Positions 35,258 to 61,636 of a stretch of DNA of 64,000 nucleotides are shown piece after piece. A model generated the notes under the pieces. The model saw only the letters and a program-made list of their open reading frames with translations, searched no databases and was not told the DNA's origin. The DNA lies in NCBI GenBank assembly GCA_965204535.1, contig OZ241996.1, positions 416,001-480,000 on the forward strand, given 5' to 3'. A program made the position numbers and the translations under genes. The stretch's first letter is position 1, and each line of letters starts with the position of its first letter. Source of the stretch: a bacterium. GTDB taxonomy: Bacteria; UBA8248.

Positions 35258-35477
35258 GGGGGGTGTTGAAAAACCCCCTGAGAGGGTAATGGCAACCCCC
35301 TTGAAAGGGAAACTTCATAAAGGCAACCCCCCCTACCCCCCCTTGACGGGGGGGTATAAAAAGGCGATGCGCTCTCGCCGGGCTGAGGGGGTTTTGCTTT
35401 TTCTTGCCCCCCTGTCAAGGGGGGGTAGGGGGGGTTGGTTTTCAGGGCGAGGTAGGGACAGGTCGCGACCTGTCCCT
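35258..35477. mobile_element. MITE-like element A (left end plus REP-like doublet plus GTAG REP; right end not found)
   Basis: GGGTGTTGAAAAA; CCCCCTACCCCCCCTTGACGGGGGG with an inverted copy; GTAGGGACAGGTCGCGACCTGTCCCT. Confidence 0.65.
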
Positions 35478-35680
35478 GTCGTAAACGGCGCCGAACTCGG
35501 GAAGGCGTCATTTCCCCCCGCGTTCACCGATGCCGCCGCTCTCTTGAGGATCAAACCCGACCCGCTAGGAACCGCGCCCCGAAATGTGCGATATTCCCTT
35601 CCCATGAGGACCCGTAAGGAAGCATCGCATCGCCACCTATCCCTTATCGCCGCACGGCGCGGCTCCGTCTGAGGCCGGGC

Positions 35681-38485
35681 GTGCGCCTCTCCTGGAACGA
35701 GATGCGCGTGCGCGCGGCGGGGTTCGCCCGCGAGTGGGCGGGCGCTGCGTACGAAAAAGGCGAGACGCAGAGTTTCTACAACGAGTTCTTCGAGATTTTC
35801 GGCGTCCGGCGCCGCTCCGTCGCGCGCTTCGAAGAACACGTGAGGCGCCTCGACAACACCCACGGCTACATCGACCTCTTCTGGCCGCGCGTCCTGCTCG
35901 TCGAGCAGAAAAGCGAGGGCCGCGACCTGGAGCGCGCCTACGGGCAGGCGGGGGAATACTTCGACGCCCTGCCCGAAAGAGAAAAACCCGGCCACATCCT
36001 GGTGAGTGATTTCCAGACCTTCGAGCTTTACGACCTGGACGAGCGCGAGCGCACCGCCTTCTCCCTCGCCGACCTGCCCGCCAACGTCGAGAAATTCGGC
36101 TTCATCCTGGGCGTGCGCCGCCGCGCCTTTCGCGATCAGGACCCCGCCAACATCAAGGCCGCCGAACTCGCGGGGAACCTGCACGACGCCCTCGCCGAGG
36201 CGGGCTATACGGGGGACGATCTCGAACGCTTCCTGGTGCGCGTCGTCTTCTGCCTCTTCGCCGACGACACGGGCATCTTCGAGCCGCGCGACATCTTTTT
36301 GAACTACGTCGAAGAGCGCACGAGCGAGGACGGCTCGGACACCGGGGCGCGGCTGGCCGAACTGTTCCAGGTGCTGGATACGCCTGAGGATGCGCGCCAG
36401 AGGACGCTGGATGAGGATTTGGCGCGCTTCCCTTACGTGAACGGCGATTTGTTCCGGGATGCCCTGCGCATTCCTTCCTTCAACGCCGCCATGCGGAACG
36501 CCCTGCTCGAAACCTGCCGCTTCGACTGGTCGAACATCTCGCCCGCCATCTTCGGCGCGCTCTTTCAATCCGTGATGAACCCGGCGGAGCGCCGCGCGCA
36601 GGGGGCGCACTACACGACCGAGAAGAACATCCTGAAAGTCATCGAGCCGCTCTTTCTGGATGACTTGCGCGCGGAGTTCGAGCGCCTGAAAGCCCGCAGG
36701 GACAGCCGCCGCTCGGCGGAACTCAGGCGGTTTCAGGAAAAACTTGGCCGTATGAATTTCTTCGACCCGGCTTGCGGGTGCGGAAATTTCTTGATCATCG
36801 CCTACCGCGAACTGCGCGAACTGGAGATGGAAGTGATCCGCGAACTGCGCTCCGACGAGATACAGCGCGAACTCGACGTGGCCGGGCTTTCCCAAATCAC
36901 CGTGGATCAGTTCTACGGGATCGAACTCGGCGAGTTTCCGGCGCGCATCGCCGAGACGGCGCTCTGGATGATGGACCACATCATGAACAACCGCCTGAGC
37001 CTCGAATTCGGCCAGACCTACACGCGCATTCCGCTCACGACCTCCCCGCACATCCTCTGCGCCGACGCGCTCGAAACCGACTGGGCGGAGCTTCTCCCGC
37101 CTCAGGATTGTTCTTATGTTTTCGGCAATCCGCCTTTCGTGGGGCATCAATGGCGCACGAGAGATCAACAGGCCGGCATGGCGCGCATTTGGGGTACGGA
37201 AGGGCAATTCAATCGGCTCGATTATGTGACTTGCTGGTTCAATAAGGCCATGCGCTACGCGGAAAAAAAGGAATCGATCGAGATCGCCTTCGTTGCGACA
37301 AATTCCATCGTACAAGGAGAGCAAGCTGGCGTTCTATGGCCGGTGTTGTTTGCCGGTGGCTTGTCTATACGTTTCGCGCATCGCACGTTTCAGTGGAATA
37401 GTGAAGCCCGAGGCTCAGCGGCAGTGCACTGCGTCATCATCGGGATGACCTTCGCCAAGGACGGAAAAAAGACGATCTATGATTACGATCATTTGCGCGG
37501 AGAGCCCCACGAGTCTGAAGTGAAGCGAATCAATGGGTATTTGATCGACGGGCCGCAGTATACGGTCCCTGCGCGCTCAAGAACGCCGATTGGTCGCCTG
37601 AAAATGCACAAGGGGAGCCAGCCGACCGATGGCGCTCGTCTCAAGAAGCCGGAAGGCGGATACATCACCTTCAGCAATCTAATCCTGAATGAAGAAGATA
37701 AGGCGGAACTTCTCGTGGCTGAGCCGGAATGCGAAAAATGGCTGAAACCTTTTGTTGGTGGTGAAGAACTAATCTCTGGGAAGTGGCGATGGTGTTTTTG
37801 GCTCAAGAACGCTGAACCGTCGGAATTGCGCGCGTCAAGGGCGATTAAGGAACGGCTTGAGCGAGTACGCGAAGGACGATTGCAAAGCCCGACGGCAAGT
37901 GTGCGCGAATATGCGAAATTTCCGACGCTGTTCACGCAGGATCGGCAACCGACGACGCCTTATCTCGCGGTTCCCGCAGTATCGTCTGAGACGCGCGAAT
38001 ATATACCGATAGCGATATAGCCGCCTACTGTTATTGCATCTGACCAAGTAAGGATTATTCCGGGAGCAGGGCTGCTTTATTTCGGTGTTCTTACTTCTGC
38101 GATGCACATGGCGTGGATGCGTACGGTCGCTGGCCGATTGAAAAGTGATTACAGGTATTCCCCGGCCATCTACAATTCGTTCGCTTGGCCAGAAATGGTG
38201 GATGACCAAGAAGCGAAAATCGTCGATTTGGCTCAGGTCGTTCTGGACGCCCGCGCGGCGTACCCCGAAGCGACGCTGGCCGACCTCTACGACCCGGACC
38301 TCATGCCGCCCGATCTTCGCCGCGCCCACCAATCCCTCGACCGCGCCGTGGATCGTCTCTACCGCCGCTCCGGCTTCGCCTCCGAGCGCGAGCGCGTGGA
38401 GCACCTCTTCGCCTTGTACGAGAAAATGCGCGCGCCGCTTGAGGTGGGGGTGAGGGGGAGGAGACGACGGCGGAGAAGGGGGTGA
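35681..38485 (+). pseudogene. MmeI-family (type IIL/IIG) fused endonuclease-methyltransferase interrupted by an in-frame TAG at 38018-38020
   Basis: GYIDLFWP..VEQKS nuclease motif, FDPACGCGNF motif I, GNPPF motif IV; same frame continues after TAG to MHMAWMRTVAGRLKSDYRYS and TLADLYDP. Confidence 0.85.
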
Positions 38486-38604
38486 AAGGATACGGCCCCT
38501 CTCAGAATGCTTGATGAAGCCCTATGTTTTTCTAATATGGTAATTTGGAATCATGGCTTTTATTTCCCAAGAAACTAAAATGGACGAGTTGAGGAGAATT
38601 ACCA

Positions 38605-39468
38605 TTGGGTGCGAATCGTCCGAAGCGGCATCATTATATCCCTGAGATGCTACTTAAGAATTTCTGCGATGATAGTGGTTTCTTGTGGGTAGGAGATCAA
38701 AAACGCAGAAAACATTATCAAGCAAATCCCACGAATGTGTTCGTAAAGAGTAATCTATATGCGAGGCACGATTTCTCCCGAGCAACTGAAAGTTATGAAT
38801 ATGAAGATTCACTATCTAAAATCGAAAGTAAAGCTGAACCTGCGATATCGAGCCTCATTGAACAAGTCCGATGTGGGCGCTATCCTCGGCTTGACCCGGC
38901 ACTCGATGACCATCTCAAAAAGTTTGTGATAGCTCTAGCTCGCCGGACGCCTGAATCCCAAGAGCGTGTCGCATCGGCCAAAGACCGTGATGTCTTTTAT
39001 GAAGTATCGAAGGCTCTGGCCGATAAACAAAACTACGATCTCCCTGCTCCAGAAATTCTTTACCAGGATCCTCGCATTCGAAAACTCAAGCAACGCATAG
39101 AATCAAATGCCAATGCTAGTTTTGCTGCTGGGGATAGACCGAATGAAAAAAATGAAGCTGAGCGTTTTTCTCGTGAAATAGGTTGGGGCATCGCACGAAT
39201 TTGCCTGCCGAAGAGGAGTTTTGTCATTGGAAGCCACGGCCTTACCTTTGTTGAGCGAGACGGGCCAATAAAGGGGAGTTGGCTACCTGCTGCTTACGAT
39301 GTCGCTGTCCAGTTCACAGCTTTTCCTGACAGAGGCTTCATGCTTGTACTTGATCGTAACAATGAGTCGATCATCAATGTGATTAATCGAGCCACCGCTG
39401 CGCAAAGCAGAATTATCGCTGGGCGTTCGGAAACTCTTGTACGTTCATTGATGCGGAAACGAACTTGA
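38605..39468 (+). CDS. DUF4238 domain protein
   Basis: GAGGAG RBS with TTG start; RHHYIPEMLLKNF, NLY, LSKIES and RRTP motifs; AT-rich codon usage. Confidence 0.7.
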   Translation: MGANRPKRHHYIPEMLLKNFCDDSGFLWVGDQKRRKHYQANPTNVFVKSNLYARHDFSRATESYEYEDSLSKIESKAEPAISSLIEQVRCGRYPRLDPALDDHLKKFVIALARRTPESQERVASAKDRDVFYEVSKALADKQNYDLPAPEILYQDPRIRKLKQRIESNANASFAAGDRPNEKNEAERFSREIGWGIARICLPKRSFVIGSHGLTFVERDGPIKGSWLPAAYDVAVQFTAFPDRGFMLVLDRNNESIINVINRATAAQSRIIAGRSETLVRSLMRKRT

Positions 39469-39678
39469 AAAGATTGACACGAGATTCAAAAGCGATGCCA
39501 CGGAAATCTGGTTTTTTCCGGTCGGTCCGGGAGTCGGACTACTCGGCATAATTGTTTCACATATCTGATCTGGAGAGTCCTTTCGGGTAAAGTCCGGGTT
39601 GCGCGACAACCTTTCGGCCAAAGACGCTTGAACATGAACACGGAACATTCCGAAGCCCGATTCAAGAATGTCTCCAAC

Positions 39679-39717
39679 TTGCGTTGCCGGCTTCCGTATG
39701 TTATATTTATATATAAC
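39679..39717 (+). promoter_or_regulatory. TA promoter with palindromic operator
   Basis: TTGCGT-17 bp-TATATT with extended TG, overlapped by GTTATAT-TTAT-ATATAAC. Confidence 0.75.
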
Positions 39718-39729
39718 TTGGAGGGTGTC

Positions 39730-39987
39730 ATGCATACGACAAATCTGCGCAAAGTCGGTGGTTCCATCATGCTGGCCGTTCCCCCCGCCCTTCTCGACCT
39801 CCTGAAACTCGGGGTCGGCGCGAAGGTGGAAATAGACGTGGAGGACGGTCGCCTGATCGTCGAGCCCAAAGCACGTCCCGTCTATTCACTCGATGAGCTC
39901 CTCGCGCAATGCGAAGAAACCCCTGCGCAGCCCGCCGAGGACCGCGCCTGGATGGAGGCCAGACCGGTTGGCAACGAGTTGTTGTAG
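39730..39987 (+). CDS. pemI: PemI/MazE (AbrB-fold) antitoxin
   Basis: MHTTNLRKVGGSIMLAVPPALL...YSLDELLAQC; GGAGG RBS. Confidence 0.9.
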   Translation: MHTTNLRKVGGSIMLAVPPALLDLLKLGVGAKVEIDVEDGRLIVEPKARPVYSLDELLAQCEETPAQPAEDRAWMEARPVGNELL

Positions 39988-40319
39988 TGAAGCGGGGTGA
40001 AATCTGGCTCGTCAGCCTCGACCCCACCGCAGGCCATGAACAACAGGGTACCCGTCCGGTACTGATCGTATCCCCGGACCCGTTCAATAGACTCACCGGG
40101 ACGCCCGTGGTCTTGCCGATCACATCGGGCGGCGACTTTGCGCGCAGGGCAGGCTTCGCAGTTTCTCTCTCGGACGCGGGTACCCGAACAACCGGTGTCG
40201 TCCGTTGCGACCAGCCGAGGTCCCTTGATCTCGCTGCCCGCAACGGGGCGCGTCTCGAAACCGTTCCTGAACTTATTATGGACGAAGTGCTTGCCCGGCT
40301 CGCCACCATCCTCGAATAA
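39987..40319 (+). CDS. pemK: PemK/MazF endoribonuclease toxin
   Basis: GTG overlaps the antitoxin stop; RGEIWLVSLDPTAGHEQQGTRPVLIVS and CDQPR motifs. Confidence 0.92.
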   Translation: MKRGEIWLVSLDPTAGHEQQGTRPVLIVSPDPFNRLTGTPVVLPITSGGDFARRAGFAVSLSDAGTRTTGVVRCDQPRSLDLAARNGARLETVPELIMDEVLARLATILE

Positions 40320-40633
40320 AAAGTGATTGTTCGTCTTCAATGCCGGACCGCACCCATCAGTGATTTCCCGTTTCGGGTCCCAGTTCCTGTGAATGACGCT
40401 AATTCGCCGATGCAATAGAGGGAGCGGCGCCGATTGGCTTAATCGGTCCTGGTTCTGGAGCGGATTCGAATACCGTCATTCGCTTCTCTCCAGTTTATCT
40501 CGTGGAGTAGCCCGTCCAGTCTCGCCCGGAACGGAGGACAAGTCAAAGCGATTCGTACCGGGAGGAGGGGAGTTTGTTCCGTCAATTCATCCGCGGCCAT
40601 GCAATCGGCAGAACCGGAAATTTCAGGCGGGGT

Positions 40634-41218
40634 TCAGGGGCCGTACACCCGGATGGCGGAGGGCTGCGTCGGGCAGAAATACTCGCAGACGCCGCACCCG
40701 ATACACCCTTTCTCGACCACGGGGCCGCGGACGCCTCCTGCGCGCTCGAGGCGGATGGCCTCTGAACCGAGCGGGCACCTGTCCACGCAATAATCACACC
40801 CCGGGTCCGTCCCGCTCCACGCGAGGCAGCGATCGGGGCTCACCTGCGCGAGCCCGATGCGTATCTCCTCGCGGGATACCAGGGTGAGCGCGCCGCTCGG
40901 GCAGGCCTTCATGCAGGCGAGGTCCTCACAGACGATGCAGGCGGCCTCCTGGGGGACGATGACCGGATGGAGGGTGTCCGAGTCGTCCGCTCCGGGGACC
41001 AGCCGGATGGCGTCGGCCGGGCAGACCTCCGCGCACGCGCCGACGCCGCAGCAAAGCTCCAGGAATTCCTCCTCGGGCGCCGCGCCCGGGGGCCGGAGCG
41101 GCGGCCGGGGCGTGTCGCCGCCATCGGCGGAAGAGCCTGCAAGAACCGCCTGGATAAAGGCGAAGGGTCCCTTCTGGAGGAAGGCGCGCCGGTCGAATTC
41201 AATCGGCTTCATCGTCAT
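40634..41218 (-). CDS. MauM/NapF-like polyferredoxin
   Basis: LRPPGA; four Cys clusters; RRAFL motif with only a weak h-region. Confidence 0.78.
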   Translation of the reverse strand: MTMKPIEFDRRAFLQKGPFAFIQAVLAGSSADGGDTPRPPLRPPGAAPEEEFLELCCGVGACAEVCPADAIRLVPGADDSDTLHPVIVPQEAACIVCEDLACMKACPSGALTLVSREEIRIGLAQVSPDRCLAWSGTDPGCDYCVDRCPLGSEAIRLERAGGVRGPVVEKGCIGCGVCEYFCPTQPSAIRVYGP

Positions 41219-41248
41219 CCCCAGACCAGCCTGCGAGCCGGGATTGTC

Positions 41249-42766
41249 TTACGCGCCGGATGCCGCATGGGTCTTCTTCCGGCGGGCCGCGCGGGAGCGC
41301 CTCCGGTGGAGAAACAGGAGCAGGATGAAGAGCGCGACGCCGCCCGATGCCGCATACGGCATCCAGGAGACGCTGTCGCCCTGGACGTCGACAGAGACGG
41401 ACCCCTGGAACCCCTCGGCGGCGAGCCTCAGGTCATAAAGCCCCGTTCCCGGCACCGACTGGCGGACCCGGTACACGGCTTCTTCGAAAGGCCGGTCGTG
41501 CCGGAAGACCGCAAGCCGCGTCTTCCCCCGGCGCACCTCGATGGTCAGGGGACCCGTGTAGCTTTGGCCGGTCCTGGAGTCCGTGAGGCTGACGTAGAAC
41601 TGCACGTCGTCCGGCGTGTCCGAAGTCTGCCGGCGCAGCCCCTCGAAGAAATAGCTCACCACGGTGATGTCGTAACTGCCGACCCGGACGCGCGTTTCGC
41701 GCGTGGGGATCTGGGGGTAGTTCTCGGCATAGCCGTAATGGGGCTTTCCCCGCATGTGGTGGCCGGAGGCGGTGAGCGGGATGAGAAGCAGGACCAGCCC
41801 CAACCCCAGGGAGACGCCCTTTTTCAGGCGCGAGAGAAGCCTGGCCGGAAAGCGCTTGGGTGCGAGTCCCAACGTCAGGAGGTCGTCGGGGCACGCGGTC
41901 GTACAGACCCCGCAGTTGTAGCATTCGGCCAGGGAGAACGACTTCGCCGGGTTGACCCCCATCGGGCAGGCTCTCGCGCAGGCCGTGCAGCCCTCGATGC
42001 AGGGACTCTCGGTCTTACGCACCCGGAAGGGGGCCAGCGAGCCGAAGAAGCCCAGCAGCGCGCCGGTCGGGCAGAGGGAGCGGCACCACGCCCGGCGAGA
42101 GAGGAGCAGTTCCGCCAGGATGACGCCCGAGAAGATCAGGACGCCGCCGTTGGTGACGCCGAACACCATCAGGGAGAACACGTCCCGCCCGATCTGAACG
42201 TGGGGAAGGAGGTTCGCCCACAGGGCGACGTTGAAGACGACCGCCGCGGCCAGACCTATGAGGAGCAGCGCCCACTTGGCCCACCGGGGGACTTTGAGGT
42301 CCGGCGGACGGACCCCGATCTTCGGCAGCGCGCGCTGCCGCAGGAGGTCGAATCCCTCCAGGAGCGTGTTCACCGGGCAGACCCACCCGCAGAAGACCCG
42401 CCCGAGGGCGACGGCCAGGAGAACCGGGAGCGCGGCCCCCGCCAGGAGTGCCGGCCAGGCGGCCGGCGTGCGGAAGGCGGTCTCCGCCGCGACCACCGGA
42501 TCGAGAATCGGGAACCCGAACACCGAGAACGACCCGAAATTGCCCACCCAGTCCATCGACCGGACGGCGGGGTCCGGCAGGCGGCCCACCGTGATCGAAA
42601 ACAGGTGGTAGAGCCATTGCTCGAAGACGGTTCCAGTGAGGGATATCTTGTGGTAGCCGTTCTTGCCGTATTGCTGGTAGAGGATCCCCCCGTAATTGAG
42701 GGCGGGCACGGCCAGGAGAAGACCGAGCGCCCCCAGCTGAATCCCCCTTCTCAGCCGGCGAGCCAT
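41249..42766 (-). CDS. napH: NapH-like membrane ferredoxin fused to an extra C-terminal extracytoplasmic domain
   Basis: GRVFCGWVCP, AWCRSLCPTG and two CxxCxxCxxxCP; then a signal-like helix, a soluble domain and a C-terminal TM. Confidence 0.78.
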   Translation of the reverse strand: MARRLRRGIQLGALGLLLAVPALNYGGILYQQYGKNGYHKISLTGTVFEQWLYHLFSITVGRLPDPAVRSMDWVGNFGSFSVFGFPILDPVVAAETAFRTPAAWPALLAGAALPVLLAVALGRVFCGWVCPVNTLLEGFDLLRQRALPKIGVRPPDLKVPRWAKWALLLIGLAAAVVFNVALWANLLPHVQIGRDVFSLMVFGVTNGGVLIFSGVILAELLLSRRAWCRSLCPTGALLGFFGSLAPFRVRKTESPCIEGCTACARACPMGVNPAKSFSLAECYNCGVCTTACPDDLLTLGLAPKRFPARLLSRLKKGVSLGLGLVLLLIPLTASGHHMRGKPHYGYAENYPQIPTRETRVRVGSYDITVVSYFFEGLRRQTSDTPDDVQFYVSLTDSRTGQSYTGPLTIEVRRGKTRLAVFRHDRPFEEAVYRVRQSVPGTGLYDLRLAAEGFQGSVSVDVQGDSVSWMPYAASGGVALFILLLFLHRRRSRAARRKKTHAASGA

Positions 42767-42770
42767 GGTA

Positions 42771-43361
42771 TCAGGACTCCACCGGGACGATGCGGATCGC
42801 CTGGGGGACGTGGATGCAGGCGCGCTCGCAGAGCCCGCAGCCCACGCAGGCGTCCGTCACGATGGGCTGCTCGTACATCCCTGTCTTCATGGCCACCCCG
42901 GGGAAGGGGCAGGCGCGAATGCACACCCCGCAGGTACGCCCCTGGTAGGAGAAGCACATGGATCGATCCACCACCGCGCGACCCATCTTGACCTGGGTGA
43001 GGACGGCTTCGTCGTCTGCGGCGATTCGGGTCAGCGCCCCCGTCGGGCAGACTTCGGTGCACTTCATGCAGAGCATGCAGGCCTGTTCGCGGGGGACGAT
43101 GTAGGGCGTGTTGAGGTTTCTCAGGCCCTGCCCGAACCCGGTCATCTGGATGGCGGTGTTCGGACAGACGGCGGCGCACCTCGCGCAGCGGATGCACCGT
43201 TCGAGGAAGTCCTGCTCGCTCAGCGCGCCGGGCGGGCGGAGGAATCGGCGAAAGCGCGTAGCGGCTCTCGCGAAACTCCTCCGTCCGGTCGCTAGCAAGG
43301 ATGCGACGCCTGTGAGCGCCGCCGCCCCTGCGAGGAGGAACATCCGTCTGTTCAGGCCCAC
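42771..43361 (-). CDS. napG: NapG-like Tat ferredoxin
   Basis: NRRMFLL Tat signal; LRPPGA, CIRCARCAAVCP and three further Cys clusters; GGAGG RBS with GTG start. Confidence 0.82.
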   Translation of the reverse strand: MGLNRRMFLLAGAAALTGVASLLATGRRSFARAATRFRRFLRPPGALSEQDFLERCIRCARCAAVCPNTAIQMTGFGQGLRNLNTPYIVPREQACMLCMKCTEVCPTGALTRIAADDEAVLTQVKMGRAVVDRSMCFSYQGRTCGVCIRACPFPGVAMKTGMYEQPIVTDACVGCGLCERACIHVPQAIRIVPVES

Positions 43362-43441
43362 TCTACCACCTCCATGTCTCCAGCCCGGCGAGACGGGGAA
43401 GACGGGAAACCTCTCCCCGTCCCGCTCGCTGCATCAAGTAT

Positions 43442-47120: not shown

Positions 47121-47323
47121 TCATGGGATTTGTTGAAAAAGCCCGTCTGCGACTCCCGCAAACCGCCAACGCCTCTTTCCTCACCCTGAGTAACCGCCGT
47201 AGGCGGCGTATCGAAGGGCGAAGGGAGCCAGACGTCTCGCGCCGGGCGAGAGGGCATCCTTCGATACGCGGTTTCACCGCTACTCAGGATGAAGCGGAGA
47301 GGGATTTTGCAACAGCCCCTCAT
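47121..47323. mobile_element. MITE-like element B
   Basis: TGTTGAAAAA ... TTTTGCAACAGCCCC ends with TCAT on both sides; inverted cargo pair TCACCCTGAGTA..TATCGAAGG / CCTTCGATA..TACTCAGGATGA. Confidence 0.7.
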
Positions 47324-48723: not shown

Positions 48724-48799
48724 GGGCGGGTAGCTCAGCTGGCAGAGCGGCGCCCTTACAAGGCGTAGGCCGGAGGTTCGAACCCTCTCCCGCCCACCA
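48724..48799 (+). tRNA. tRNA-Val(TAC)
   Basis: GGGCGGG/CCCGCCC acceptor stem, D arm TAGCTCAGCTGGCAGAGC, anticodon loop CT-TAC-AA, TTCGAAC T loop, encoded CCA; 76 nt. Confidence 0.96.
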
Positions 48800-48858: not shown

Positions 48859-49224
48859 TCAGGGGCTGCTGAAAAACCCCTCGTCGCTCGGAATTGACCG
48901 CTGTCGTCATTCCGGCGAAAGCCGGAATCCATTTACTTCGTCTTTGTTTTTTCTGAAGAGCGGTTGCCCTTTTGCAGGATGGTTCGAATCGGGACAGGCA
49001 CGAAGGCCTGTCCTTACGGAGCGGCACCTCTTCGTTCGGTTTGATTGCTCTCTTGCCTGCATGAAAACCAACCCCCCCCTACCCCCCCTTGACAGGGGGG
49101 TATAAAAAGGCGACCCCCGCCGCCGGTAGAAGGGCTTTTGTTTTTTCTTGCCCCCTGACAAGGGGGGGTAGGGGGGGGTTGCCTTTGTCCTCTGACAAGG
49201 GGGTCTTTTTCAACAACGCCCTCA
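48859..49224. mobile_element. MITE-like element C (composite cargo)
   Basis: TCA-GGGGCTGCTGAAAAA ... TTTTTCAACAACGCCC-TCA; carries GTCATTCCGGCGAAAGCCGGAATCC, GGGACAGGC..GCCTGTCC and the CCCCCTAC doublet. Confidence 0.75.
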
Positions 49225-51276: not shown

Positions 51277-51514
51277 AGGGTTGTTGAAAAGCCTCTCGCC
51301 GGTCGATTTGATTGCCCTTTCACCTGCATGAAAACCAACCCCCCCTACCCCCCTTGTCAGGGGTCAAAACCGACCGAAGAGGGAGGTTTTGCAAGACGAT
51401 GTGTTTCTCGTCAATGGCTTATGCAAACGCTCGTTCATCACTCGCGTTTGACCCCTGACAAGGGGGGTAGGGGGGGGTGCCTTTATCCCCCGACGAGGCT
51501 TTTTCAACAATCGC
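51277..51514. mobile_element. MITE-like element F
   Basis: GGGTTGTTGAAAAG ... CTTTTTCAACAA ends; inverted CCCCCTACCCCCCTTGTCAGGGG pair. Confidence 0.7.
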
Positions 51515-52081: not shown

Positions 52082-52141
52082 GAAGTGAATATCCCTGTGC
52101 GCGGGGGCAAATCCCACAGTACAGGATAGGTACCTGGTTTT

Positions 52142-52320
52142 GTAGGGACAGGTCGCGACCTGTCCCTACGACTTCGTTCGTCATTCCGGCAATCCCTCCC
52201 TCACCGGGTGGAATTGATTGTAGGGGCCGCATATATGCGGCCCGTCGTTGGAAGGCGAAAAGGCAGAGTCGCGTATACGTCGGACATATATGTCCGACCT
52301 ACACAGCCCCCTCAAGGGGG
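52142..52320. repeat. Cluster of GTAG-family REP palindromes plus an orphan MITE right end
   Basis: GTAGGGACAGGTCGCGACCTGTCCCTAC; GTAG-GGGCCGCATATATGCGGCCC; GTCGGACATATATGTCCGAC-CTAC; ACAGCCCCCTCAAGGGGG. Confidence 0.75.
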
Positions 52321-52450
52321 GAGTAATTCCCAAACTCGCATTCGCCATTTTCGCTCCTCACTCTCTCTTTACTCTGCCGCTGGAATAATTCAAGACTTAC
52401 AGTATCCGGCAATATGCCGTACATTACAGGAAGACCAAGGAGGCGAGACC

Positions 52451-52675
52451 ATGCAGAATTTCCCTAACCATAACGACGCCATCGACGAGGCGACTTTCAT
52501 GACCGGCACAGCTTTAGAGCGCGCCCGGCTCACGATTGCCGATCATGAGCGCACGCTCCTCAGGGCTGATGACCGCGCCGTGGTTCTCGCCGCCCTCGAT
52601 GCGCCCCAAGAGCCGACCGAAGCCTTGCGCGAGGCGATGGCCCTGCACGAAGCGCGGGTGGCGCGTGACAGCTGA
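52451..52675 (+). pseudogene. DUF1778 (TacA-type) antitoxin with internal deletion
   Basis: AGGAGG RBS; C-terminal HERTLL..D..V.AALDAP.EPTEALREAM; RHH segment appears missing. Confidence 0.6.
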
Positions 52676-52826
52676 GGACATATCAGTTCCACAAAGCATA
52701 TCCATAGAACCGATCAACTCGAAAAAACGCCTTGCGTTCTACGCCGCCATGGGATTTCAGCCCTTGCCGTCGCGTCCCCTGAGAATGTTCATCAGCATCG
52801 AAACGATTCACAGGGCACTGGCCTGA
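52665..52826 (+). pseudogene. GNAT (TacT-type) toxin remnant
   Basis: N-terminal ISIEPINSKK joined directly to C-terminal LAFYAAMGFQPLPSRPLRMFISIETI. Confidence 0.6.
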
Positions 52827-52884
52827 AGCGCGTTTCAGGCGGGCGGGTCTGGCGCGTCCGCTCTCCAGACCTTAAAGTGTCCCC

Positions 52885-53742: not shown

Positions 53743-53765
53743 CGGCGGATGGTGTGTTCAGGCGC

Positions 53766-54068
53766 TTGAGGGGGGTTGTTGAAAAACCCCTCTTTGCTCG
53801 GAATTGACCACCGCCGTCATTCCGGCGAAAGCCGGAATCCATTCTAAAGCAGAATGACGATACAAAGGCTTTTTATCTCCTTGTCATTGGCGAGAACCAA
53901 CCAAAAATAAAAAATAAAGGCAAAACAAATGGATTCCGGCTTTCGCCGGAATGACGAACCAAATCGAGAACCGCAAGTTTCTGTAGGGGTCGTTCGCGAA
54001 CGACCCCTACTTCATCATCGGTCGCGACAAACACTCATTTATCAGGACTTTTTCAACAGCCCCCTTGA
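53766..54068. mobile_element. MITE-like element D
   Basis: TTGA-GGGGGGTTGTTGAAAAA ... TTTTTCAACAGCCCCC-TTGA; inverted GTCATTCCGGCGAAAGCCGGAATCCATT pair and GTAGGGGTCGTTCGCGAACGACCCCTAC. Confidence 0.78.
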
Positions 54069-54227
54069 GGGGAGCTTGCGGAGCGGGTGAGATTCTCCAC
54101 GTTGCTGAAGGCCATCTCGACGCGCCGCCGAATACGCCCCAAGCCGCTGGCCGGTGCGTTGAAAAATGCTATAGTGGCTTTCCCGGAAACGTCATCATAC
54201 TCAACATTTCTCATACAGGAGTGAACC

Positions 54228-54620
54228 ATGAGCGAGCCGCAAATCAGTGCGCAGGACGTCCTGAACGCCAGCGCCGGCTGTCTGCAGAAGCAGATGTACG
54301 TCTACTTCACGAAACCGGCGAACGGTCTGGGACCCGTGATGGAGAATCTCGAAGATCACTTGAAGTTTCAGGTCGAACTCGAACAAAAGGGGATCATGTT
54401 CGGCGCGGGGCCTTTCTGGACGGAGGATGAGCAGCGCTGGGAGGGGGAGGGGATGATCATCATCCGGGCCGAATCCCTTGCCGAGGCGCGGAAGATCGCC
54501 GAATCGGACCCCATGCACGCGAGCGGCGCGCGCACGTTCACCATACGCCCCTGGCTGCTGAACGAGGGGATGGTCACAATGAAGGTGACCTACTCGGACG
54601 GCGGGCGGGAAGTCATATGA
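54228..54620 (+). CDS. YciI-like protein
   Basis: HLKFQVELEQKGIMFGAGP, GMIIIRAES and DPMH motifs. Confidence 0.8.
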   Translation: MSEPQISAQDVLNASAGCLQKQMYVYFTKPANGLGPVMENLEDHLKFQVELEQKGIMFGAGPFWTEDEQRWEGEGMIIIRAESLAEARKIAESDPMHASGARTFTIRPWLLNEGMVTMKVTYSDGGREVI

Positions 54621-55477
54621 ACTGGACGCCGAGACGAGAGAGATTCCGCGCCCTGCTCGCGGGCGAGAGGTGCGTGCATCCCGGTTCGGTCTACGACCCA
54701 CTCACCGCGCGCATGGCGGAGGACCTGGACTTCGAGGTCGGGATGTTCGCAGGCTCCACCGCCTCGCTCACCGTGCTGGGCGCGCCGGACATCATCTTGT
54801 TGACGCTCACGGAATTCGCCGCCCAGGCGCTGCGCATCAACCGCGCGGCCGGGATGCCCCTGCTGGTGGATGCGGATCACGGCTACGGAAACGCGCTGAA
54901 CGTGAAGCGCACCGTCGAGGAACTCGAAACCGCCGGCGTGGCGGCCCTCTCGATTGAGGACACGGTGCTGCCCCAGCCATTCGGCGCGGATGGTGCGCAG
55001 CTCACTTCGATTGAAGAGGGCGCCGGCAAGATGCGCGCGGCGCTGGAGGGGCGCCAGGACCCGAATCTGGTGATCGCAGGCCGGACGAGCGCGCCGCGCG
55101 TCACGGGTACGGAAGACGCCATCGCGCGCGTGACGGCCTATGAGGCGGCGGGGGTGGACGCCATCTTCGTGGTGGGCGTCCAGAGCCGCGCTCAACTGGA
55201 GGCCATCTCGGCTGCGGTGAACCTCCCCATCATCCTGGGCGGTAGCGCAAAAGAGGTGCGGGGTCTGGATTATCTCGGCGGTCTGGGCGTGCGGGTCGCG
55301 CTCCAGGGCCATCAGCCCATCATGGCGGCGGCGGGGGCGGCCTATTCCACGCTGAAGGCGCTCAAAGACGGCGCGCAACCAGAAGACCTCGAAAGCGTGC
55401 CCTCAAACAATTTCATGAAGAAATACATGAACGACGCGGACTACCGACGGCAGATAGAGTCGTTTCTGGAGGAATGA
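54617..55477 (+). CDS. Oxaloacetate decarboxylase-like (ICL/PEP mutase family)
   Basis: FAGSTAS, DADHGYGNALNV and SIEDTVLPQPFG (lacks the KxCGH loop of PrpB/ICL). Confidence 0.8.
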   Translation: MNWTPRRERFRALLAGERCVHPGSVYDPLTARMAEDLDFEVGMFAGSTASLTVLGAPDIILLTLTEFAAQALRINRAAGMPLLVDADHGYGNALNVKRTVEELETAGVAALSIEDTVLPQPFGADGAQLTSIEEGAGKMRAALEGRQDPNLVIAGRTSAPRVTGTEDAIARVTAYEAAGVDAIFVVGVQSRAQLEAISAAVNLPIILGGSAKEVRGLDYLGGLGVRVALQGHQPIMAAAGAAYSTLKALKDGAQPEDLESVPSNNFMKKYMNDADYRRQIESFLEE

Positions 55478-55577
55478 AGTCCGCGCGCGAATCGCCGATC
55501 TCATGTGACGAAAGCGCTTTTCAGGATATATACTGGCTCCTCCATTAAGGACAGTTCATCCACCCGGGGAGAGCCTC

Positions 55578-56720
55578 ATGGCCATAGAACTTGCATGGTA
55601 TATGTCGTGTGACGGCGACAGCGCCTACATCGGCCGGAAATTCGCCGATCATCCCCCGAGCTATGAGACGTTCACCCGCATCGCGCAAAACGCGGAGAGA
55701 AGCGGCTTCACCACCATCCTGGTGCCCACCTCCCAGGTGAGCGGCCACTACGGGCCGCAGGCCCCGACGTGGGACAGCATGGTGAACGCCGCGGTGGTCG
55801 GCCCGGCGACCAAGACGATAAAGCTGCTCTTGGCCGTTCGCGTGGGGATCATCGACCCGGCCATCTGCGCGCGGATGATGGCCTCGCTCGACGAACTCAC
55901 CGGCGGGCGCATCCTCTACAACATCGTCACGGGAGGCGGCGCGCTCGCGAGCTACGGCGAGACGCTGGATCACGACACGCGCTATGAGCGCACGGATGAA
56001 TTTCTGGAAATCCTGGAGGGTCTCTGGACTCAGGAGAAATACTCCTTCGAGGGCAGGTTCTACAACCTGCAAGACGCCACCGTGTATCCCCGGCCGGTGC
56101 AGAAGCCGAGGATTCCCTTCTTCATGGCCGGGGCGTCCGAGATAGCACAGGACATCGCGATCCGCCGGGCGGAGTATTCGGTGTTCTGGGGAGAGACGCC
56201 CGGGCAGGTGGCCGAGCGCGTCGATTACATGAACGGGAAATGCGAGCGCGCGGGAAGGGCGCGCCCGCTCAAGTACGTGACGCGGTTTCAGATATTCGCG
56301 CGCCAGACGGAAGAGGAAGCCTTCGAGGCGGCGGAGGAAGTGATGAGCCGGGTCGACCCCGAGGTGCTCGCGCATCGCGGAAAGGTCATCTCCTCGTTCG
56401 AGAGCAAGGGCACGAAGGACCAGCAGGCCCGCACGCGCGAGGAGATGGTGGGCCCCAACCTCTGGGCCGGCATGGGCCGGATTCGCTCGGGCTCGGCCGT
56501 CGCCATCGTGGGTTCGTATGAACAGTGTGCGCAGAAGATCATCGAGATCGAACAGGCAGGCATCGACTTGCTCATCCTTTCGGGTTTCCCCCTGCATGAG
56601 GAATGCGTGAACGTCGGCAGGCACGTAATCCCGCTCGTGCGCGAGATGGAGCGGGAACTCGACCTCGTGCATGAAGGGGATGAGGCGTTCTTGCCCCTGA
56701 GCCAGGGGGTCACCGTCTAG
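55578..56720 (+). CDS. Luciferase-like (LLM) flavin monooxygenase, SsuD-like
   Basis: LLAVRVG, GGRILYNIVTG, HDTRYERTDEF and NLWAGMG..RSG...AIVGS motifs. Confidence 0.85.
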   Translation: MAIELAWYMSCDGDSAYIGRKFADHPPSYETFTRIAQNAERSGFTTILVPTSQVSGHYGPQAPTWDSMVNAAVVGPATKTIKLLLAVRVGIIDPAICARMMASLDELTGGRILYNIVTGGGALASYGETLDHDTRYERTDEFLEILEGLWTQEKYSFEGRFYNLQDATVYPRPVQKPRIPFFMAGASEIAQDIAIRRAEYSVFWGETPGQVAERVDYMNGKCERAGRARPLKYVTRFQIFARQTEEEAFEAAEEVMSRVDPEVLAHRGKVISSFESKGTKDQQARTREEMVGPNLWAGMGRIRSGSAVAIVGSYEQCAQKIIEIEQAGIDLLILSGFPLHEECVNVGRHVIPLVREMERELDLVHEGDEAFLPLSQGVTV

Positions 56721-56796
56721 CTTTTCAAGAGTATCGGCATATTTCGGCGGACTTGGAATAGAGTCCGATTTCTTTCACCGATGAGGGCGAATCTAC

Positions 56797-57972
56797 ATGG
56801 ATTTCGATTTGAACGAAGAACAAAAGGCGTGGCGCGATAAAGCGAGAAAATTCGCCGAAGAGGAAGTCGCGCCCATATCGCTGGAGCGGGACATGATATC
56901 CGACCCGAGGGAGACCTTCGACTGGGAGATCATCAAGAAGGGCTCCAGGCTCGGTTTCCGCACCGCCGTCGTGCCCAAGGATCGCGGGGGCCACGGGATC
57001 GATTTCGTCACCCAGGCGCTGGTGATGGAGGAGATCGCGCGCGGCGACAGCGCGATATCCAAAACCTTCAGCCAGTGCTGGAAGTGGAGCCACCTCATCG
57101 CCGCCTCCTGCACGGATGACCAGAAAGACAGGTTCCTGAAGCCCTTCCTTGAGGACGATACCTATCTGCTTGGCAAAGGCGGAACCGAGGAATCGGCGGG
57201 TTCTGACAACCGCATGCCTTCCGACGATCCCCGGACGGGCTGGAAGCTTAAGGCGGTGCGCGAGGGCGATGAGTGGGTGCTGAACGGCCGCAAGCGCTAC
57301 ATCGCCAACGGGAGCGTGGGCAAGCTCTTCTTCATCGACGGCAGGACCGACCCCGACGTTCCCATCACGCAGGGCACCACGCTCTTCCTCGTACCTTCGG
57401 ATACGCCGGGATTCCGCGTGGGCAAGGTGTACGACAAGATCGGCTGGCGCTTTTACCAGAACGCGGAACTCATCTTCGAGGACGCCCGCGTGCCGCACGC
57501 CAACGTGGTGGGCGAGGTGAACCGGGGGGTTCAGGCGCGAAAGGGCGATACGTCGGAGTTCGGCGATCTCGAACTCTCCGCCAACGGGCTGGGCGTGTGC
57601 CAGGCGGCGGTCGACCAGGCGATGCACCAGGCCAGGACGCGCTGGCAGGGCGGTAAATACATCATCGAGCACCAGGCGATACAGCTCAAACTCGCCGAGA
57701 TGCACATGCTCACCGAGGCGCTTCGCGCTTACGTCATGCGCACCGCGTGCGACCTGGAAAAGGGTGCGGACCGCGACATGAAGCACACCATCCTGCTCAT
57801 GAACTTCGCGACGGACGTCATACAGCGCGTCACCCACCTGAACATGGACATCCACGGTGGCGCCGGCGTCATGAAGGACGTGGGCGTGGAAAAACTCGTA
57901 CGCGACGCGATTGTCTGGACGCACCTCGCAGGCGACGCCGTACAGCGGATCAAGGTCATCAAGCACCTCTAG
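56797..57972 (+). CDS. Acyl-CoA dehydrogenase family protein
   Basis: TEESAGSD, WVLNGRKRYIANG, QAIQLKLAEM and IHGGAG motifs. Confidence 0.88.
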   Translation: MDFDLNEEQKAWRDKARKFAEEEVAPISLERDMISDPRETFDWEIIKKGSRLGFRTAVVPKDRGGHGIDFVTQALVMEEIARGDSAISKTFSQCWKWSHLIAASCTDDQKDRFLKPFLEDDTYLLGKGGTEESAGSDNRMPSDDPRTGWKLKAVREGDEWVLNGRKRYIANGSVGKLFFIDGRTDPDVPITQGTTLFLVPSDTPGFRVGKVYDKIGWRFYQNAELIFEDARVPHANVVGEVNRGVQARKGDTSEFGDLELSANGLGVCQAAVDQAMHQARTRWQGGKYIIEHQAIQLKLAEMHMLTEALRAYVMRTACDLEKGADRDMKHTILLMNFATDVIQRVTHLNMDIHGGAGVMKDVGVEKLVRDAIVWTHLAGDAVQRIKVIKHL

Positions 57973-57985
57973 GCGGGGGAATCCC

Positions 57986-59065
57986 ATGAGCGGAAAAACG
58001 GTTTCCCTGGCCGTCATCCTGGGCGACGGCGTGGGCCACGACGTGCTGCCCGTGGCGACGGAGGTGATACAGACTGCATCGGGCGCGATAGGAGTGAATG
58101 TCGAGCCGGAAATCTATGACTACGGCGCGCTCCATTATCTCGAACACGGAACCCCGCTGCCCGAGGACGTGGACGGCCTGGTGCGCGGCCTGGCGGAAAA
58201 ACACGACGCCATCCTGTTCGGAAGCGCAGGATTAGACCCCAGAATCCCCGAAGACGTGAACTGCCGCGATCTCCTGCGCGCGCTTCGCTTCGAACTCGAC
58301 CTGTACGTGAACCTGCGGCCGGCGCCGCTCCTGCATCCGGATTTTTCTCCCCTGAAACGGGACGCCGAAATCGACCTTGTCGTCGTGCGCGAGAACACCG
58401 AAGGGTTGAACGTGCGCGTGGGCGGCAACTTCAAGAAGGGGACGCCGGATGAGGTCGCTATCCAGGAGGACGTCAACACCTATAAGGGCGTCTCGCGCAT
58501 CTGCCGCTACGCCTTCGAGTACGCGCGAAAACACGGCTATCCCAAGGTGACCATGGCGGACAAGCACGGCTCCATCATCCACGCGCACGGCCTGTGGCAG
58601 CGCGTATTCTGGCAGACGTCGGAGGAATTCCCGGACGTGGAAGGGGAGCACTACTTCATCGACACCCTGTGCCAGGACCTCTTGTTCAAGCCGGAGGATT
58701 TCGGCGTCATCGTCACCAACAACATGTTCGGCGACATCCTGAGCGATCTGTGCGCAGGGCTGGTCGGAGGCGTGGGTCTGGCGGCGTCGGGCTGCATTCA
58801 CCCGGGCCGCGTGTGCATGTTCGAGCCCGTGCACGGCACCGCACCCGACATCGCCCTCAAGGGAATCGCGAACCCCTTCGCCGTCTGCCTCACGGGAAGA
58901 ATCCTGCTGAGCACGCTGGGCATGGAAAAGGCGGCGGACCTGATCTGGGAGGCGATTCGCTCCGCCGTCCGCGAGAAAAAGACCACGGCCGATCTCGGCG
59001 GTTCGCTGAATACACAAGAAGTGGGCGATTACCTCTGCGCGCACATCGAGAAATCGGGTGTGTAA
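57986..59065 (+). CDS. Isocitrate/isopropylmalate/tartrate dehydrogenase family
   Basis: GDGVG, YVNLRP, RENTEG, NMFGDILSD and FEPVHGTAPDIA motifs. Confidence 0.88.
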   Translation: MSGKTVSLAVILGDGVGHDVLPVATEVIQTASGAIGVNVEPEIYDYGALHYLEHGTPLPEDVDGLVRGLAEKHDAILFGSAGLDPRIPEDVNCRDLLRALRFELDLYVNLRPAPLLHPDFSPLKRDAEIDLVVVRENTEGLNVRVGGNFKKGTPDEVAIQEDVNTYKGVSRICRYAFEYARKHGYPKVTMADKHGSIIHAHGLWQRVFWQTSEEFPDVEGEHYFIDTLCQDLLFKPEDFGVIVTNNMFGDILSDLCAGLVGGVGLAASGCIHPGRVCMFEPVHGTAPDIALKGIANPFAVCLTGRILLSTLGMEKAADLIWEAIRSAVREKKTTADLGGSLNTQEVGDYLCAHIEKSGV

Positions 59066-59217
59066 ATTTTGAAGATTTTCCGGTTACGGATATTTGATTC
59101 GCTAGATGAAAGCCGCCAGGAAATACGCCATGATTGGCAGCGAGCGATGGGCTTACTTGTCAACGCTCATTGGGGCCGCTACCATGGCGAAAGGACGATG
59201 AAAGAGAGGACTTTGGA

Positions 59218-59592
59218 ATGACGGAATTCGAAATGGCGACGCTGGCTGTGCAGAAAATGGGCGTATTGGTCGCGGCCCTGGTCGGGTTTTCGCAGTGCGC
59301 CCTCATCGGCGGGGGTCTTTTCATGATGCGCCGCGCGGCGATCATGCGAGACAAGGCGCTCGACGAACTCATCAAGGGCGGGAGAACGAACCACGAAGAA
59401 GTCATGAAGAACCACGAGCAATTCATGGCGAATCATAGGGAAACCATGGAAAAGCACGAAGAAACCATGGCGGAGATCCGGGCGAACCGCGAACAAAGTA
59501 TGGAGAATCACAGGGAAGCCATGGCGAAGCACGAGGAGAGCATGGCGGCGCTTCATGAACTCATCAGGCGTACGAGCAAGGCGGAGGAATGA
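59218..59592 (+). CDS. Small membrane-anchored protein with His/Met heptad repeats
   Basis: GAGG RBS; N-terminal hydrophobic helix, then NHEEVMK-NHEQFMA-NHRETME-KHEETMA... Confidence 0.7.
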   Translation: MTEFEMATLAVQKMGVLVAALVGFSQCALIGGGLFMMRRAAIMRDKALDELIKGGRTNHEEVMKNHEQFMANHRETMEKHEETMAEIRANREQSMENHREAMAKHEESMAALHELIRRTSKAEE

Positions 59593-59665
59593 GTAAGACC
59601 TCCCTATTAGATCGACAAATTCCGACAACCTTTCATCATTCCTTTTAGCGTTTGGAAGGCCAAAT

Positions 59666-61351
59666 ATGCCTTTTGAAGTCGGCGCGCCCGCGCATGCGGG
59701 CCAGATTGTCGTAGACGCGCTCGTCAGGGAAAACGTCAGGAGGCTCTATTGCCTTCCCGGCTCCCATCTTCTCCAGTTCTACGATGCGCTGAGAGTTGCC
59801 CCTTCCATCGGCCTCGTCACCTGCAAGCAGGAGCCGAACGCCTCCCTGATGGCCGACGCCTACGGGCGGCTCACCGGGGAGCCCGGCGTGTGCCTGCTCA
59901 CGGCGGGGCCGGGCGGCGCGAACTCCATTGCGGGCGTGGCCCAGGCATTCGGGGCGGCGTCGCCGATGGTGCACATCACGGGTTCCGTACCGCTCGATGC
60001 GTCTCGCGAGGCGTTCCACGGGGTGGACGATCCCGACTTTCTGGTCGAGATGTTCCAGAAGGTTACCAAGTGGAGTGTTCGCGTGAAGAGCATCGAGGAG
60101 ATATCGGGCGTCATGGCGAAAGCGTTTCACGTCGCCAGGAGCGGGCGGCCGGGGCCGGTTCACGTCGAGATACCGAGGCTCAGCGACTACAGCCCCCATC
60201 TGTTGCAGGATGCCCCCATCGCGCTGCCCGAATACGAGCCGCAGCCGGCGCAGGTCGTCGCCCCCCATGCGGAGGACGTCGCCCAGTACGCGCGCAGGTT
60301 GCTGGCCGCGGAATACCCCGTCATCTGCGCGGGCAAGGGGGTGATGCGAAAAGGCGCTATGGAAGAACTCTCGCGCCTCGCCGATAAGTTCTCGATTCCC
60401 GTCATCTACCCCCAGGATGCGATGGGCGTCATCGCAGAGGACCACCCCCTGGCGGTGGGGCATTACTTCGCCTTCAGGAACACAGGCTTCATGGACGGCG
60501 TCACCGGGAAGTGCGACCTGATGATGTTCATCGGCCTGAGAGCTGCCACGGCGGAGGTCGAGCACATCGAACCCTATGCGCCAGCAGAGCGGATATTCAT
60601 CGGCTTCGACGATGCGGAGGATGCGCACTACGGCGGTGCGGACGAGATAGTCGCAGACCCCAAAATGTTCCTGAGCGCTCTTGAAGAGCATCTGGCGGAA
60701 GAGAGCGGACGGGCGGGAGACGAAGTGAGGGAGCAGATCGCGGAGGGGAAGGCGGATTTGAGGAGGCAGGCCCTGGAGGTTATCGAGGGCCATGAGAGCG
60801 AGACGCCGATCCATCCGGCGCTCTTGATGGAGGCGCTGAGCCGCCACATCAAGCCGGACGCCATCGTCGTCAGCGACGTGGGGAACTGCCAGATGTTCGC
60901 GCGCTACTACGTGCCGCTCACGAACCAGTTCTCCTTCATGCAGTCGGGCGTGTGGAACGCCATGTCCTTCGCGCTGCCCACGGCCATCGTCGCCAAGATG
61001 GAATACCCCGGGCGCGACGTCATCGGCCTGGTGGGAGACGGCGCGTTCCTGATGACGATCGGCGATTTCGTGACGGCGAGCGAATACGGCGCGAACATCG
61101 TGATGATCGTCCTGAACGACGGCTCCTACGGCCAGATCGACCGCCAGCAGCAAAACCTCTACGGCGCGGCCTACGGCTGCGATTTCAAGAGCCCCAATTT
61201 CGCCGAGATGGCGCGCTCGTTCGACGCGTTCGGCGTGCGGGTGGAAGACCCCGCCGACCTCGACGACGCTATCGAGGCGGCGCTCTCCGCGGGCAAGCCG
61301 GCCATCGTGGAAGTCATGACGCGCGAGCAGCCCCTGCCGAAGATTTCATGA
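59666..61351 (+). CDS. Thiamine pyrophosphate-dependent enzyme (acetolactate synthase-like)
   Basis: MADAYGRLTG, AGPGGAN, RPGPVHVEIP and GDGAF...NDG TPP motif. Confidence 0.88.
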   Translation: MPFEVGAPAHAGQIVVDALVRENVRRLYCLPGSHLLQFYDALRVAPSIGLVTCKQEPNASLMADAYGRLTGEPGVCLLTAGPGGANSIAGVAQAFGAASPMVHITGSVPLDASREAFHGVDDPDFLVEMFQKVTKWSVRVKSIEEISGVMAKAFHVARSGRPGPVHVEIPRLSDYSPHLLQDAPIALPEYEPQPAQVVAPHAEDVAQYARRLLAAEYPVICAGKGVMRKGAMEELSRLADKFSIPVIYPQDAMGVIAEDHPLAVGHYFAFRNTGFMDGVTGKCDLMMFIGLRAATAEVEHIEPYAPAERIFIGFDDAEDAHYGGADEIVADPKMFLSALEEHLAEESGRAGDEVREQIAEGKADLRRQALEVIEGHESETPIHPALLMEALSRHIKPDAIVVSDVGNCQMFARYYVPLTNQFSFMQSGVWNAMSFALPTAIVAKMEYPGRDVIGLVGDGAFLMTIGDFVTASEYGANIVMIVLNDGSYGQIDRQQQNLYGAAYGCDFKSPNFAEMARSFDAFGVRVEDPADLDDAIEAALSAGKPAIVEVMTREQPLPKIS

Positions 61352-61636
61352 GGGGGCTGTTGAAAAAGCCCATGAGAGGGGAATGGCAACCCTCTGAAAG
61401 GGAAACCCCATAAAACCAACCCCCCCTACCCCCCCTTGTCAGGGGGGCAAGAAAAAGCAAAACCCCCTCTACCCGGCGGCTGGTATGAAAAAGCCAAACC
61501 CCTGGCCGGCGGCGGGCGTCGTCTTTTTTCATATCCCCCACTTGCCGGGGCGTCGGCCTTTTTTACCCCCCTGTCAAGGGGGGGTAGGGGGGGCCTTTGT
61601 CCCCCGGCGAGAAGGGCTTTTTCAACAACCCCATAA
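61349..61636. mobile_element. MITE-like element E, inserted at the upstream gene's TGA stop
   Basis: TGA-GGGGGCTGTTGAAAAA ... TTTTTCAACAACCCCA-TAA; left arm shared with element A; CCCCCTAC doublet. Confidence 0.78.

Follow-up and report, generated by a model that had tools for sequence, protein, structure and literature searches.

Short intergenic elements with IS1182-type ends carry REP cargo that differs between relatives behind stationary ends

Short intergenic elements bounded by the ends of an insertion sequence (IS) were investigated in a 64,000-nucleotide stretch of a bacterial genome of the GTDB lineage UBA8248 (contig OZ241996.1, positions 416,001 to 480,000; hereafter the window, G000:C1:416001-480000, G000 being the window's genome and other G numbers its relatives). 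A preliminary description had proposed from the sequence alone that six such elements are MITE shells (MITE, a miniature transposable element with inverted repeats) carrying interchangeable repetitive extragenic palindrome (REP) modules. We found a real, genus-wide system of shells, i.e. pairs of inward-facing IS1182-type ends, with REPIN cargo (inverted REP doublets), and its distinctive measured property is frequent cargo exchange behind ends that stay in place. Two relations had been missed earlier: CCCC-type REPs carried by shells are themselves targets for insertion of both the IS and the shells, a two-way relation, and shells are one vehicle among several, most REP copies lying outside closed shells.

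On contig C1 the end motif TGTTGAAAAA occurs 137 times versus 12.2 expected from a 5th-order Markov model. Genome-wide pairing of the ends, which the preliminary description had set as its test, was borne out, with 87 strict pairs 100–600 bp apart facing inward and 4 facing outward. A relaxed 15-bp end pattern retrieved 641 ends at 383 loci, versus 10 ends in the reversed sequence, and 158 adjacent inward-facing pairs under 800 bp were taken as shells. A REP motif of at least one of five families (GTAG, CGTC, CTCATCCTGAG and two CCCC types) was present in 150 of the 158, and degenerate CCCC or GTAG hairpins were recognised by eye in the remaining 8. The first 40 bases inside the ends fell into 175 groups, 126 of them singletons, the recurrent groups running directly into one REP family; the shells displayed 104 arm combinations, and whole-element clustering yielded 131 clusters (117 singletons, the largest with 7 members). 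The 14 multi-copy clusters hold 41 shells that are 85–99.7% identical within unrelated flanks, and duplications of at least 4 bp were detected at 49 shells versus 10.2 ± 3.0 when left and right flanks were permuted, so by sequence comparison shell-plus-cargo units appear to transpose. The proposed capture and spread of REP modules is thus upheld as regards spread, while a large share of the diversity among cargoes comes about in place, behind stationary ends.

Shell lengths set in sharply near 165 bp (4 of 153 lie below it) and showed no helical phasing at 10.5 bp (Rayleigh p = 0.32, 153 shells), nor was any seen in 36 duplication-bearing shells or 43 shells of G002. Three other notions about the ends were tried: a 20-bp end as an independent mobile unit was rejected, duplications at single ends (55 of 641) matching the permuted value (47 ± 7); the end as a covarying hairpin was rejected, its stem positions being without covariation; and arms starting with a target-like hairpin were unconvincing (20% of arm types versus 13% in the control). 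Contigs of public runs confirmed the unique flanks (run X2, which may share the window's origin) but end at repeats, so that neither excision nor collapse is visible in them.

The behaviour of the ends was followed in one genome pair by comparing the 518 outermost ends of G000 with 2.04 of the 4.39 Mb of G002, in which aligned blocks average 94.2% identity (first 0.84 Mb). An orthologous flank was found for 218 ends: in 92 the alignment stopped short of the junction, in 33 no end was present, in 42 the arm was the same and in 51 it was different; namely, where an end was present in both genomes, the interior differed at 51 of 93 junctions. Dropping one borderline case and excluding REP-flanked sites, at which independent insertion is likely, left 45 different-arm junctions. 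At these a non-consensus end variant was shared in 15 cases versus 1.6 by permutation (maximum 8 in 5000), and the C/T position was shared in 40 versus 20.3, the sequences diverging within 0–5 bases inside the end. Since end variants are kept behind different arms, the ends are inherited in place while the interior changes.

Both flanks were found in G002 for 51 of 148 loci: 21 did not align to both junctions, 16 kept both ends, 8 had one or no recognised end, 5 were empty and 1 retained a lone end. Interiors of the 16 loci with both ends kept were wholly replaced in 8, partly replaced in 2 and the same in 6. The lone end represents G000:C2:966353, whose shell has shrunk in G002 to the left end, fused with the far flank across a short shared sequence; in this way a lone end could possibly be brought to face new DNA and start a new arm type. 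Empty alleles, sought in relatives as the preliminary description had suggested, were found for element B in G002, where a near-perfect single copy of the duplicated site is present as the only such case, and for element E in congeners.

A 1.5-kb autonomous element with the same 15-bp ends was identified in 24 intact and 2 interrupted copies, with a single open reading frame (ORF) of 484–486 codons between short terminal inverted repeats. Its transposase was assigned to IS1182 by the NCBIfam model NF033551 (344.7 bits, cut-off 270), exceeded by all 24 intact copies, while IS5 models stayed below cut-off; thus, of the IS5/IS1182-like ends proposed earlier, the IS1182 part holds and the IS5 part falls away. 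All 24 intact copies sit by eye, and 22 by pattern, in the loop of a CCCC-type REP. Duplications of 4–6 bp flank 17 of the 24 (15 of 5 bp, one of 4 bp and one of 6 bp); another copy shows a match only when shifted, and in 6 the flanks are unlike. Because the end starts with GGGG, a small CCCC-loop-GGGG hairpin is rebuilt at each IS junction. A shell end in enclosing orientation lies within 450 bp of 21 of the 24 copies, and on both sides of 10. Beyond the IS copies themselves, a single short stretch has a match to the IS sequence over 60 bp, and the IS right-arm and left-arm types have 32 and 26 members, respectively, versus 26 IS copies; the shell interior is not derived from the parent IS by internal deletion. 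The shared ends, the shared targets and the co-occurrence across congeners suggest that the IS1182 transposase mobilises the shells in trans.

The 6 copies with unlike flanks (e.g. C2:1127386, C2:2806720, C1:782041 and C1:1190321), two of which have the same REP arm on both sides, suggest rearrangements between IS copies. A second IS1182 element of ~1.78 kb was considered as shell partner and rejected for its different ends; it occupies 14 sites (e.g. C1:743827, C2:1235192 and C2:2823392), often in a recurring GC-rich motif and with very variable duplications of ~5–14 bp by eye, and two of its copies lie at the same site within the transposase gene of the first IS.

In-place exchange probably proceeds by nesting and collapse. 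A new element would insert into the CCCC-type REP of the resident cargo, and the DNA between two same-facing ends would then be deleted, independently of RecA, across 15–19-bp direct repeats and with the help of the intervening hairpins; picking different end pairs within the nest would produce mosaic arms. RAYT, Ssn-like and DUF559 enzymes would keep supplying REP doublets, and the net effect would be that shells copy REP doublets to new sites, providing the IS with more harmless landing sites. Insertion into cargo is visible in the structures: the inner end adjoins a CCCC-REP half in 66 of 95 same-direction neighbours versus 94 of 505 outermost ends, and some loci are fully nested and have duplications of their own. 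At two loci the cargo REP is intact in one genome, and in the other the loop carries an insertion whose far side lies at the old outer junction (G002 versus G016, in both directions); the three-genome polarity draws on contig C22 of G016, on G002 and on 20-kb stretches of G011 and G012. As to the collapse, a half-collapsed form was recognised by pattern in 10 of the 30 three-end loci of G000, and end variants were kept at positions 0 to +7 (11 of 18) and not at +8 to +10 (1 of 14); variants kept in the outer and lost in the inner end core would fit a crossover inside the end. In Escherichia coli, according to the consulted part of one study, deletion between nearby direct repeats (101 bp) is RecA-independent and raised by a palindrome between them (PMC7145654).

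A number of observations weigh against nesting and collapse. The E. coli repeats are five times longer than the IS ends here, movement was not seen directly but read from sequence comparison, and one-step gene conversion from a REP-nested donor yields the same product. The inner end has no recognisable REP half in 16 of the 30 three-end loci, and a nested-to-collapsed relation was found at 1 of 50 different-arm junctions between G000 and G002 (4 looked inverted and 45 were neither). The dependence of swaps on CCCC cargo is a trend, neither side being CCCC in 4 of 48 versus 17% expected (p = 0.06), with Fisher p = 0.16 for CCCC cargo at swapped versus unchanged ends. Conversion or turnover at the level of REPINs must also be invoked for the spacer swaps and inversions within unchanged arms (elements D and F), and another process is required where the end-free 52.1-kb cluster turns over. 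Moreover, counts for the two ends of a locus are not independent of each other, 109 of the 158 shells have no duplication, and clean empty alleles are few (5 of 51 loci), with a near-perfect single-copy site at B only.

We regard as unlikely, yet as worth weighing, an ectopic gene conversion in which the cargo is broken, e.g. through cleavage by a RAYT, Ssn-like or DUF559 enzyme, and repaired on the template of another shell, an end or a REP serving as primer, so that the interior would be overwritten with no transposition at that site. The ends offer it only 15–19 bp of imperfect homology, which is below the usual need of RecA, and the nested elements with their own duplication, along with the 10 IS copies enclosed on both sides, indicate that insertion into cargo does occur. 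Such conversion would nevertheless account for the REP-bounded spacer replacements and inversions at D and F, for the turnover of end-free REP clusters and for the retention of resident end variants; the genome encodes three candidate REP nucleases, and Ssn is described in the consulted part of PMC11893778 as cleaving single-stranded DNA near such repeats. Quite improbable is a stem-loop replacing transposition like that of IS1272, in which a resident shell or hairpin serves as target and the DNA between its arms is replaced in one step: it would import new ends, yet resident end variants are kept, and this IS, unlike IS1272, leaves 4–6-bp duplications with both hairpin arms staying, even though the process is known for IS1272 of the same family (PMC5678879, consulted part), the shells fold into long hairpins, and a few ends lie just 24–27 bp behind another end. 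Separate insertions of distinct MITE types at one and the same hot-spot base, with nothing exchanged in place, would suit the strong site selectivity of the IS and the re-use of the same hairpin targets by IS1272/TnSha1 (PMC4923244, consulted part), but are hardly credible, being largely refuted by the rare end variants and C/T states shared at sites that exclude REP-flanked ones, and also opposed by the partial replacements at C, D and F, which keep half of the interior.

The REP systems represented in the cargo exist independently of the shells, because most motif hits fall outside shells and each candidate nuclease gene is flanked by REPs. Shells, which cover 42 kb or 0.9% of the genome, hold 18–29% of each family's motif hits; for the GTAG and CTCATCCTGAG patterns the background in the reversed sequence is 118 and 40 hits, respectively. 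The RAYT, GIY-YIG and DUF559 genes that had been suggested as partners are all present, each flanked by one cargo family; family searches of the genome returned a single hit each for DUF559 and for RAYT-like genes and two for GIY-YIG, of which the second lies within an 873-codon frame. The DUF559 gene (129 aa, G000:C2:1233578-1233967) has inverted CCCC-type REP doublets on either side, into both of which the IS has inserted, and its product is a candidate third REP-associated nuclease; sequence resembling the commonest shell arm was observed upstream of it. The RAYT-like gene (G000:C1:983500-984099, 983.5–984.1 kb) has GTAG REPs on both sides and matches PF01797 (Y1 transposase) over cut-off, but scores 42.8 bits against NF047646 (cut-off 80), where an in-frame insert splits the match; this insert consists of the gene's own GTAG REPs. 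The other GIY-YIG gene (G000:C2:927.5–927.8 kb) encodes a single-domain protein of 104 aa (PF01541, 56.9 bits) between inverted CGTC repeats, an architecture that matches Ssn as published in the consulted part of PMC11893778. For the CTCATCCTGAG and CACTCCCCCC families, no cognate gene was found between flanking copies.

In the window itself (Table 1), the six elements described earlier all exist, and five are closed by an inverted end while A is not. Their shared end sequence was confirmed, and the ends vary more than claimed (left ends of B, C and D: GGATTTGTTGAAAAA, GGGGCTGCTGAAAAA and AGGGTTGTTGAAAAG, respectively); the four cargo families are real as well. The mosaic arms described earlier were recovered (48862/53772, 90% over 72 nt; 49028/51295, 81% over 59 nt; 35255/61349, 72% over 109 nt), though under letter labels that had been out of coordinate order. 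As for the flanking direct repeats, true duplications stand at B and E (CTTGAG), none was found at A, C and F, and D has 4 bp only with a one-base shift. That the window holds no transposase agrees with genome-wide searches for IS1182 and Y1 transposases, which gave no match inside it, not every window ORF having been scanned for other transposase families.

Table 1. Features of the window (positions are those of the 64,000-nucleotide stretch)
Feature	Position	Strand	Description
Element A, left end	35259..35273	+	lone IS1182-type end; no closing end found
Element A, whole span	35259-35477		left end only
Element A, cargo	35319..35442		inverted doublet of CCCC-type REPs, the family that flanks the DUF559 gene
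GTAG REP after the element A doublet	35452-35477
Element B	47126..47319		closed shell; CTCATCCTGAG/CCTTCGATA-type hairpins; TCATG 5-bp duplication on both sides; empty allele in G002
Element C	48862..49220		closed shell; one CGTC REP and a CCCC doublet; right end adjoins half a CCCC-type REP
Element D	51277..51514		closed shell; CCCC doublet
Free REP cluster	52142..52330		GTAG and a CCCC-type half; without IS ends; differs among congeners too; comparison case, not a shell
Element E	53772..54063		closed shell; CGTC doublet and GTAG-type palindrome; 5-6-bp duplication (C)TTGAG
Element F	61353..61632		closed shell; CCCC doublet

Comparison with the relatives displayed the exchange at single sites. 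The G002 ortholog of element C keeps the left end and has different cargo and another right end. Element D has its ends at the same bases in G002, G012, G016 and G011, with interiors partly or wholly different (fully replaced in G011), and its site is empty in 8 other congeners. The junctions of element F are common to the same four genomes, with the spacer inverted in G012 and G016 and a CGTC doublet in place of the CCCC doublet in G011, and 6 congeners are empty at this site; that of element E is empty in G002, G016, G012 and G011. At the G002 ortholog of site A, ~2.4 kb with an ankyrin-like ORF (by eye) lies between the left end and the CCCC REP, and no closing end was seen.

Genes around the elements are ordinary, encoding cytochrome c, peptidases, EamA, a thiamine pyrophosphate enzyme, a short-chain dehydrogenase and an MmeI-type methyltransferase. 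An Rfam scan returned no family match for the window elements, the only match in the window being a tRNA gene at 48724-48796, just upstream of element C, behind which the DNA differs in many congeners. A TacA1-like antitoxin match was observed in a decayed-looking region (window:52208-52675), for which the locus in G003 and G014 is longer and probably takes in the gene of the partner toxin. A 152-aa ORF with 21-bp tandem repeats (window:59134-59592) had no Pfam match, and similar low-complexity ORFs adjoin REP clusters at C2:1228071 and C2:2831848.

Among the congeners, 13 of 18 have the end motif in abundance, and it is nearly absent from 12 more distant genomes. Of 22 congeners, 12 gave a match to the transposase; no match came from the five that lack the end motif, nor from G003, G005 and G016, which have the ends and whose assemblies are fragmented. 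Transposase identity falls stepwise, i.e. 92% in G002, G011 and G012, ~80–84% in G008, G013, G014 and G031, and 77% in G034, which may reflect long vertical persistence. In a species-genome collection, the end core with a CGTC REP behind it occurred in at least 121 stretches at 80 or more loci. Among the 80 loci listed, the 31 whose titles name taxa other than Nitrospinota and kin were examined; these include Nitrospirota, Chloroflexota, Margulisiibacteriota and delta- and gammaproteobacteria, and 20 of the 31 have a closing end within ~400 bp. The shell-plus-REP architecture therefore extends past this genus, the in-place exchange having been measured within the genus only. Closed shells of these distant taxa were 130–131, 141–142, 162, 192 and 237–238 bp long and often lay in TTAA or CTAG, and several of these lengths are spaced at multiples of ~10.5 bp, which is not so for the shells in the window's genome.

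Each part of this system is of a known kind, and the in-place exchange is what sets it apart. Mobile insertion cassettes (MIC) are IS ends around passenger genes, the cargo here being non-coding, and ISPpu9 is a REP-targeting IS, but an IS110 element. The comparisons below rely on the consulted parts of the papers cited. Hairpin targeting is published for IS1182 members (PMC4923244, PMC5678879), and IS1272/TnSha1 of staphylococci share with the present IS the transposase family, insertion into hairpins, variable ends and end-like sequences that move passenger DNA; however, IS1272 deletes the stem-loop without duplication, whereas here the loop is inserted into with a 4–6-bp duplication and the hairpin survives, the targets are two specific REP families, and the non-coding derivatives with REPs number in the hundreds. 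Bacterial MITEs (Correia/NEMIS, RUP, ERIC, Nezha and Chunjie; PMC3184786, PMC3733652) resemble the shells in their 100–450 bp, terminal inverted repeats shared with an IS, duplications and empty alleles; the shells likewise are short and without transposase, share their ends with a co-resident IS, and have duplications (although most lack one) and empty alleles, but do not form many homogeneous copies, and their interior is neither a cut-down IS nor one conserved sequence and changes at fixed ends.

The cargo is like REPINs with RAYT (PMC3116915) in its inverted REP doublets with spacers and in the GTAG REPs flanking a RAYT-like gene, and like the SRM/NTS repeats with Ssn GIY-YIG nucleases (PMC11893778) in the CGTC REPs flanking a single-domain GIY-YIG gene; it differs from both in that 18–29% of REP hits lie inside DDE-transposon ends and a third family flanks DUF559. 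In Halothiobacillus neapolitanus and Anabaena variabilis REP dimers are regularly enclosed by an outer palindrome, the consensus of the former resembling this IS end by eye; the consulted part of that source (PMC3733652) gives one REP family per shell and describes no IS link, targeting or exchange. Bacterial interspersed mosaic elements and Neisseria NIME (PMC3184786) are mosaic intergenic repeat arrays as well, without bounding IS ends. We found no description of stationary IS ends with exchanged REP cargo in a search that left most subscription papers, ISfinder and supplements outside, nor of DUF559 paired with REPs in one that left most subscription papers outside.

Taken together, we put forward tentatively, as a possibility short of an even chance, that pairs of 15-bp IS1182 ends are long-lived chromosomal cassette sites that swap REPIN modules of RAYT, Ssn GIY-YIG and undescribed DUF559 systems, in an IS–REPIN mutualism, with an architecture that recurs in many phyla. 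If true, the DDE transposase would spread REPINs, and REPINs would give safe targets through which the IS persists vertically in the lineage. MITEs are usually seen as fixed moving sequences, while here the ends stay and the interior turns over (51 of 93 junctions between genomes ~94–95% identical). This would offer a concrete and testable route for REP doublets to spread and recombine without enzymes of their own, bearing on the question of REP/REPIN dispersal, and would add both DUF559, as a third nuclease candidate associated with REPs, and an IS1182 transposase whose target is defined and non-genic.

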